Assembly (NCBI RefSeq): GCF_013122565.1
Contig: NZ_CP053258.1
Reading direction: 5' to 3' (one strand)
DNA: 64,000 nt
Source of the DNA: Escherichia coli
Lineage (GTDB): Bacteria > Pseudomonadota > Gammaproteobacteria > Enterobacterales > Enterobacteriaceae
Notes under the pieces: generated by a model
Told to the model about the DNA's origin: nothing
Seen by the model: the letters and a program-made list of their open reading frames with translations, nothing else
The model's database searches: none
Position numbers and translations under genes: made by a program
Shown here: piece after piece, positions 24,942 through 25,185 of the stretch
How positions within the stretch are numbered: the stretch's first letter is position 1
Layout of the letters: each line of letters begins with the position of its first letter

Positions 24942-25035
24942 TGAATAAAACTACGAGTTCCGGGTGTGCCTTATTCGGCCTGCTAGTTCGAATTTAATTT
25001 ACGGTTTTTTGTGGTTTTAGGGATAAATACAAGGA

Positions 25036-25110
25036 TGGTGTCCCCTGCAGGAATCGAACCTGCAATTAGCCCTTAGGAGGGGCTCGTTATATCCATTTAA
25101 CTAAGAGGAC
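25036..25110 (-). tRNA. argW: tRNA-Arg (anticodon CCU)
   Basis: 75-nt cloverleaf including CCA; revcomp reads GTCCTCTTAGTTAAATGGATATAACGAGCCCCTCCTAAGGGCTAATTGCAGGTTCGATTCCTGCAGGGGACACCA, with anticodon loop CT-CCT-AA. Confidence 0.93.
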
Positions 25111-25185
25111 AATGCGGCATGAGTATACCCGCTAATGGACTGCGGGGTAAGTACGCTGCCGCTCGATTGCTTAAACCCTCGCCAT

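Follow-up and report, generated by a model that had tools for sequence, protein, structure and literature searches.

In the 64,000-nt stretch of Escherichia coli DNA analysed here (the window), the tRNA gene argW lies directly beside dsdC, at a locus where K-12 carries a cryptic prophage. This raises the question of whether the interval between dsdC and yfdC (24942–25185) is an attachment site that holds no element, the scar of an element that has decayed, or a product of assembly. We consider it to be, with a probability of roughly 0.94, an intact and unoccupied attB at the 3′ end of argW, the target of the tyrosine integrases of IntS, HK620, Sf6 and Kapi1.

Anatomy of the dsdC–argW–yfdC interval

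At the left edge of the interval is dsdC (24006–24941, plus strand), which encodes the LysR-type activator of the D-serine operon and was identified from the ORF list, Pfam and comparison with K-12. Its frame opens at a GTG at 24000 in the mechanical ORF list, and its stop codon ends at 24941. The ORF contains the Pfam domains HTH_1 and LysR_substrate and is 97.5% identical to K-12 dsdC, with third codon positions accounting for 16 of the 23 substitutions; matching genomes annotate the same ORF as dsdC, and the accession of the DsdC protein of the window is QJU27564.1. Anchoring the 5′ side of argW is yfdC (25186–26118, minus strand), a gene of the formate/nitrite-transporter family that is present in the ORF list (Pfam Form_Nir_trans, E = 1e-48; 98.1% identity to K-12 yfdC). 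The segment 24942–25185 is the entire intergenic region between these two genes, and the ORF list has no ORF of 60 aa or longer within it.

Occupying the centre of the interval is argW (25036–25110, minus strand), an intact gene for tRNA-Arg(CCU) with an encoded CCA. It is the single tRNA found by ARAGORN in the 64 kb (tRNA-Arg, anticodon CCT), is supported by Rfam family RF00005 (63.4 bits, E = 3e-12), and has no differences from K-12 argW; no RNA family other than the tRNA was found by Rfam between 20 and 30 kb. Overlying the 3′ end of the gene is a 16-nt att core (25035–25050), present as a single copy in the window, which reads ATGGTGTCCCCTGCAG on the plus strand and CTGCAGGGGACACCAT in the tRNA sense, and which takes in the final 15 nt of argW, with its encoded CCA, and one base downstream. 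Extending from the dsdC stop codon to the core is a chromosomal spacer (24942–25034, assigned to no strand), the B arm, which is colinear with K-12 and with the empty-site E. coli strain WB61. Together with base 25035, the B arm makes up the 94 bp (24942–25035) between the dsdC stop and the tRNA 3′ end, exactly the distance given in an earlier, sequence-only reading of this DNA.

Upstream of argW and downstream of yfdC is a 75-bp region (25111–25185, minus strand) that differs from K-12 by one substitution. A putative argW promoter, read by eye as TTACCC and TATACT separated by 17 nt and not reported by the consensus scan, probably lies in this region, as probably does a terminator hairpin of yfdC. 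On the other side of the tRNA, the scan found no terminator-like or promoter-like sites in the 94-bp spacer, which folds no better than shuffled sequences (z-scores of +0.55 and +0.88). A functional spacer, acting as a bidirectional terminator or an sRNA, was rejected owing to this lack of sites, the ordinary folding and the lack of any Rfam match besides the tRNA.

The two K-12 arms meet at a single att core

The RefSeq order in K-12 MG1655 is yfdC, argW (2466309–2466383), CPS-53, pawZ and dsdC, in agreement with the sequence-only reading, which placed CPS-53/KpLE1 (intS onward) between argW and dsdC in K-12. The cryptic prophage CPS-53 (KplE1) spans 2466369–2476583, from intS through torI. 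Adjoining it is pawZ, a 15-nt pseudo-argW (2476584–2476598), with dsdC located 95 bp beyond.

In local BLAST comparisons, window 1–25050 matches the dsdC side of the K-12 locus, ending at K-12 2476584, and window 25035–28211 matches the argW–yfdC side, starting at K-12 2466384. The two arm alignments share exactly 16 nt, window 25035–25050, corresponding to the att core, which is also seen in the nucleotide alignment. This joining of the arms with an exact 16-nt overlap indicates the unoccupied attB configuration. The overlap also yields the annotated CPS-53 limits, 2466369–2476583, to the base, bearing out the suggestion that the locus would be useful for delimiting island boundaries.

The attL and attR sites of KplE1 in K-12 have the same tRNA, 16-nt core (CTGCAGGGGACACCAT) and chromosomal arms as the window, and the duplicated 16-nt KplE1 core described in the literature has the same sequence as the window core (PMC2951348). 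In K-12, two copies of the core are found 10,215 bp apart around intS to torI, whereas the window has one exact copy in 64 kb and nothing between the arms. The junctions are arranged as B–core–B′ in the window, P–core–B′ at K-12 attL, B–core–P′ at K-12 attR and P–core–P′ in phages HK620 and Sf6. From end to end, the window spacer can be aligned with its counterparts on the attR side of K-12 and in WB61; relative to K-12, the 94–95-bp spacer on the dsdC side differs by 4 substitutions and 1 indel. The empty-site configuration proposed earlier is thus upheld by K-12 arms that join at a single 16-nt core, with the qualifier that ‘empty’ refers to the absence of IntS-type prophages and of the csc island. 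Comparison of the argW region with K-12 and other E. coli, the check that had been advised, returned a clean attB in which a partial integrase or a repeat is absent.

Phages with the same att core

The annotated attP cores of HK620 (1368–1383) and Sf6 (18099–18114) have exactly the sequence of the window core, as do both K-12 copies flanking CPS-53. At least 23 phage records carry the attP/int/xis module at an identity of 95% or higher, and these include HK620, Sf6, HK633, IME10, N7, CUS-3, Kapi1 and the Stx2 phage VT2phi_272. The attB used by HK620, Sf6 and Kapi1, as in the empty argW of E. coli KP7 (PMC8787464), has the same position at the argW 3′ end; the 17th base of the Kapi1 att site is A, whereas window position 25034 is G, as in K-12 attR. 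Deletion of 17 bp of attB in KP7 abolished integration of Kapi1 at the site (0/24 colonies, compared with 19/20; PMC8787464). Integrases of the IntS type are tyrosine recombinases that act on identical attP and attB cores, with attP supplying the tRNA 3′ end and the tRNA staying intact (PMC8787464, PMC2951348).

In the window, the core (25035–25050), with its overlap of the final 15 nt of the tRNA, lies between a B arm of chromosomal DNA toward dsdC and a B′ arm formed by the rest of argW and yfdC. In lysogens, where the phage attP carries the same 16 nt, integration splits B–O–B′ into attL and attR, regenerating an intact tRNA and leaving a 15–16-nt pseudo-tRNA end (pawZ in K-12) beside the spacer on the dsdC side. 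In the window, integration would have been either absent or precisely reversed. A site that was never occupied and one emptied by precise Int/Xis excision would be indistinguishable, because both would give the sequence of the window.

The site is probably competent to receive argW-targeting phages, judging from its sequence identity and by analogy with the effect of the attB deletion on Kapi1 in KP7 (PMC8787464). Phages of the HK620, Sf6, Kapi1 or CUS-3 type are predicted to be able to establish lysogeny at argW in the strain, and among the records with the same integration module is that of the Stx2 phage VT2phi_272.

Searches for traces of an island or prophage

An explanation that competes with an unoccupied attB is that a former prophage or island decayed by imprecise deletion and left a scar in the 94-bp spacer. 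Such a remnant would be recognized by attP arms, a piece of an integrase gene or a second copy of the tRNA 3′ end, and the window contains none of these. [quoted passage not shown] These 25-mer, 16-mer and repeat searches agree with the view, first formed from the letters alone, that the tRNA 3′ end is not duplicated. One match to the 16-mer with 3 mismatches, at 39226, was rejected as an att remnant, being at chance level (expectation of 0.37) and on the far, wrong side of the tRNA.

In tblastn searches of the 64 kb with IntS, TorI, the HK620 integrase, the integrase of the E275a argW locus and the DUF4942 protein left over from the csc island, all matches were at chance level (E ≥ 0.035) and none was near argW. 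A 26-aa match to the E275a integrase at 47687–47764 (E = 0.035) was judged to be due to chance. At the nucleotide level, blastn searches of the window with CPS-53 (10 kb) and with three other island flanks (4.5 kb) gave no match, and alignment of the 94-bp spacer revealed no phage attP-arm sequence. The absence of an integrase or island, as originally proposed, therefore holds for the whole 64 kb by tblastn and blastn; elsewhere in the genome, an IntS-type prophage may be present. Present at the locus are the features of an unoccupied attB for integrases of the IntS/HK620 type: a core identical to that of the phages, overlapping the 3′ terminus of an intact gene for tRNA-Arg(CCU), occurring once between chromosomal B and B′ flanks, and accompanied by no adjacent integrase, excisionase or island genes.

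Degraded-island scars do occur in relatives, and one is found in E. albertii GCA_028806815.1. Its 132-bp dsdC–argW spacer (L013, 5949–6080) aligns to the P arm of the attP from HK620 (...ATATTCAGGGGATTTT...GCGAACTGATAA, followed by the core), and yfdC is largely deleted, with a 3′ fragment left. This spacer is a degraded-island scar at the argW site and serves as a positive control for remnants. The E. albertii locus shares the gene order dsdA–dsdX–dsdC–argW and the core with the window, but has an attP-arm-like spacer and has lost yfdC, whereas the window keeps both the chromosomal B arm and yfdC. As the window spacer matches the chromosomal B arm of K-12 and WB61 from end to end, with no attP arm, and as integrase, TorI, island DNA and a core repeat are lacking, a decayed element is effectively refuted as the origin of the interval. 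In the E. albertii locus, an upstream GGGTAAAA/GCGGGTAAA motif resembles, by eye, the arm on the torI side of K-12.

It is also highly improbable that assembly collapsed a prophage bounded by the 16-nt repeat or by a larger one. In principle, an assembly may omit or misplace elements that have repeats at their ends, and there is no direct evidence of such a loss here; a 16-nt repeat is, however, unable to cause collapse, the source contig is a chromosome-scale record of 4.82 Mb, and the same joint is found in 937 other complete genomes. Furthermore, a Logan assembly of SRR11451224 spans the junction and matches the window without a difference for 12,936 bp; its reads are probably from the same isolate, so that this agreement is a check on the assembler.

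Occupancy of argW in E. coli

The frequency of the empty joint was determined in 5,426 complete RefSeq E. coli genomes, with a match defined as at least 80% of the query in one place. A 169-nt query covering the spacer and tRNA located the joint in 937/5,426 genomes (17%), and a wider query of 701 nt located it in 910/5,426. Queries for the occupied states matched 1,865/5,426 genomes (K-12 argW with intS) and 2,615/5,426 genomes (the cscB end with argW, representing the csc sucrose island). The three states sum to approximately 5,390–5,417 of the 5,426 genomes, as counted by separate queries whose categories may overlap. In genomes whose joint is not contiguous, the similarity to the window is interrupted at 25035/25036. 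The characterization of argW as an integration hotspot is well founded, in that an insertion is present there in approximately 83% of complete E. coli genomes, and argW has been described as a recombination hotspot at which csc replaces dsdCX (PMC4366372). Among the argW-associated islands listed in a review is ‘PAI-CFT073-argW’, with DsdA (PMC7545054).

Found at the argW locus of O157:H7 86-24 is a P22-like remnant with intS, and that of E275a contains a different tyrosine integrase and IS66. In two strains, dsdC is replaced at argW by cscB, cscK, cscA and a gene for a LacI-family regulator. In csc-type E. coli (L008 and L010, around 4500), the base past the tRNA 3′ end is C, not A; the exact 16-nt core of the IntS type is therefore absent from csc-type genomes, which retain no more of it than the 15 nt within the tRNA.

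The primary description of variability in the argW–dsdCXA region is reportedly that of Moritz & Welch 2006 (J Clin Microbiol 44:4038). Relative to this variable region, the window is one alternative state, with intact dsdCXA directly beside argW, and shows no difference in kind; the strain belongs to the minority of approximately 17% of E. coli with this arrangement. An empty argW attB is an already known configuration of a known hotspot, the KplE1 att core and the hotspot itself having been established previously, and no open question hinges on it. It is of practical rather than conceptual value, providing an attB reference exact to the base from which the limits of other argW-associated elements can be drawn as for CPS-53.

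Searching species-representative genomes with the 27-mer of the empty junction (GATTCCTGCAGGGGACACCATCCTTGT) gave a single match, to the 486-bp contig NZ_JAHZMP010000156.1 in the assembly of Terrisporobacter mayombei DSM 6539. This contig has 0.81x coverage and an E. coli-like yfdC–argW–spacer sequence in the empty-site form, and is almost certainly contamination; the search yielded no empty site in an outgroup.

A possible older origin of dsdCXA at argW

Beside dsdC are the other genes of dsdCXA, which, perhaps together with the low-GC emrKY–evgAS genes, may themselves have been acquired at argW long ago, with later decay of the distal att copy. We regard this as a tentative and rather unlikely reading; it is compatible with an unoccupied attB, which would then mark the edge of an ancient island. 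Pointing to such an origin are the location of dsdCXA in Salmonella and Citrobacter, where it is found at another locus beside emrD, tisB and ilvB and without argW, the inclusion of DsdA in ‘PAI-CFT073-argW’ (PMC7545054), and the GC content of 38–43% in evgAS–emrKY at 13.6–21 kb. It is opposed by the ordinary GC content of dsdCXA (46–52%) and by the lack of a tRNA 3′-end copy, even with 3 mismatches, on the dsdC side within the window.

Owing to the different location in Salmonella and Citrobacter, the argW–dsdCXA adjacency looks specific to Escherichia, and the site is ‘empty’ relative to recent elements only. Conceivably, although we hold it to be doubtful, dsdCXA (possibly with emrKY–evgAS) entered an Escherichia ancestor at argW, and the diverged lineage preserves the state before IntS-type prophages and csc spread. 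Were this true, the lineage of the window would be a natural reference for ordering acquisitions at the argW hotspot.

In the Citrobacter and Salmonella contigs (L014–L017), dsdCXA is positioned between DUF202 genes and a block of cellulase, MFS, EamA, tisB and ilvB genes. In the window, the evgS–evgA–emrK–emrY segment (13668–20997) has a GC content of 38–43%, compared with 46–52% in the neighbouring dsdCXA, consistent with a foreign origin.

Divergent source lineage and other features of the window

Two 22-kb segments of the window have a best identity of only 97.0–97.7% to the 5,426 complete RefSeq E. coli genomes. That the sequence had been mutated artificially, as this best identity of approximately 97% might suggest, was rejected because third codon positions hold most of the substitutions relative to K-12 (75 of 97, in five genes). 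The pattern of its substitutions marks the source of the window as a lineage that diverged naturally and may be a cryptic clade, and this divergence may lend the empty site some reference value.

Located at the position of K-12 yfdF, between mlaA and fadL, is an ORF of 430 aa (27349–28641, minus strand) in DNA of 34–36% GC. It has no Pfam match and forms a cluster of its own at 90% identity among approximately 15 billion proteins; other strains have different hypothetical genes at this position. Between sixA and yfcV is a 575-bp segment (35368–35942) with no K-12 match, and the adjoining region (35943–47803), which runs from yfcV through the yfc chaperone–usher fimbrial operon to yfcL, has a mean identity to K-12 of 86.9%, compared with approximately 98% in the flanks. 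Absent from K-12, at the junction between the yfcL and mnmC regions, is a segment of 1.28 kb (47804–49079), and within it is a gene (47908–48888, minus strand) encoding a 326-aa transposase of the IS110 family (DEDD_Tnp_IS110 and Transposase_20).
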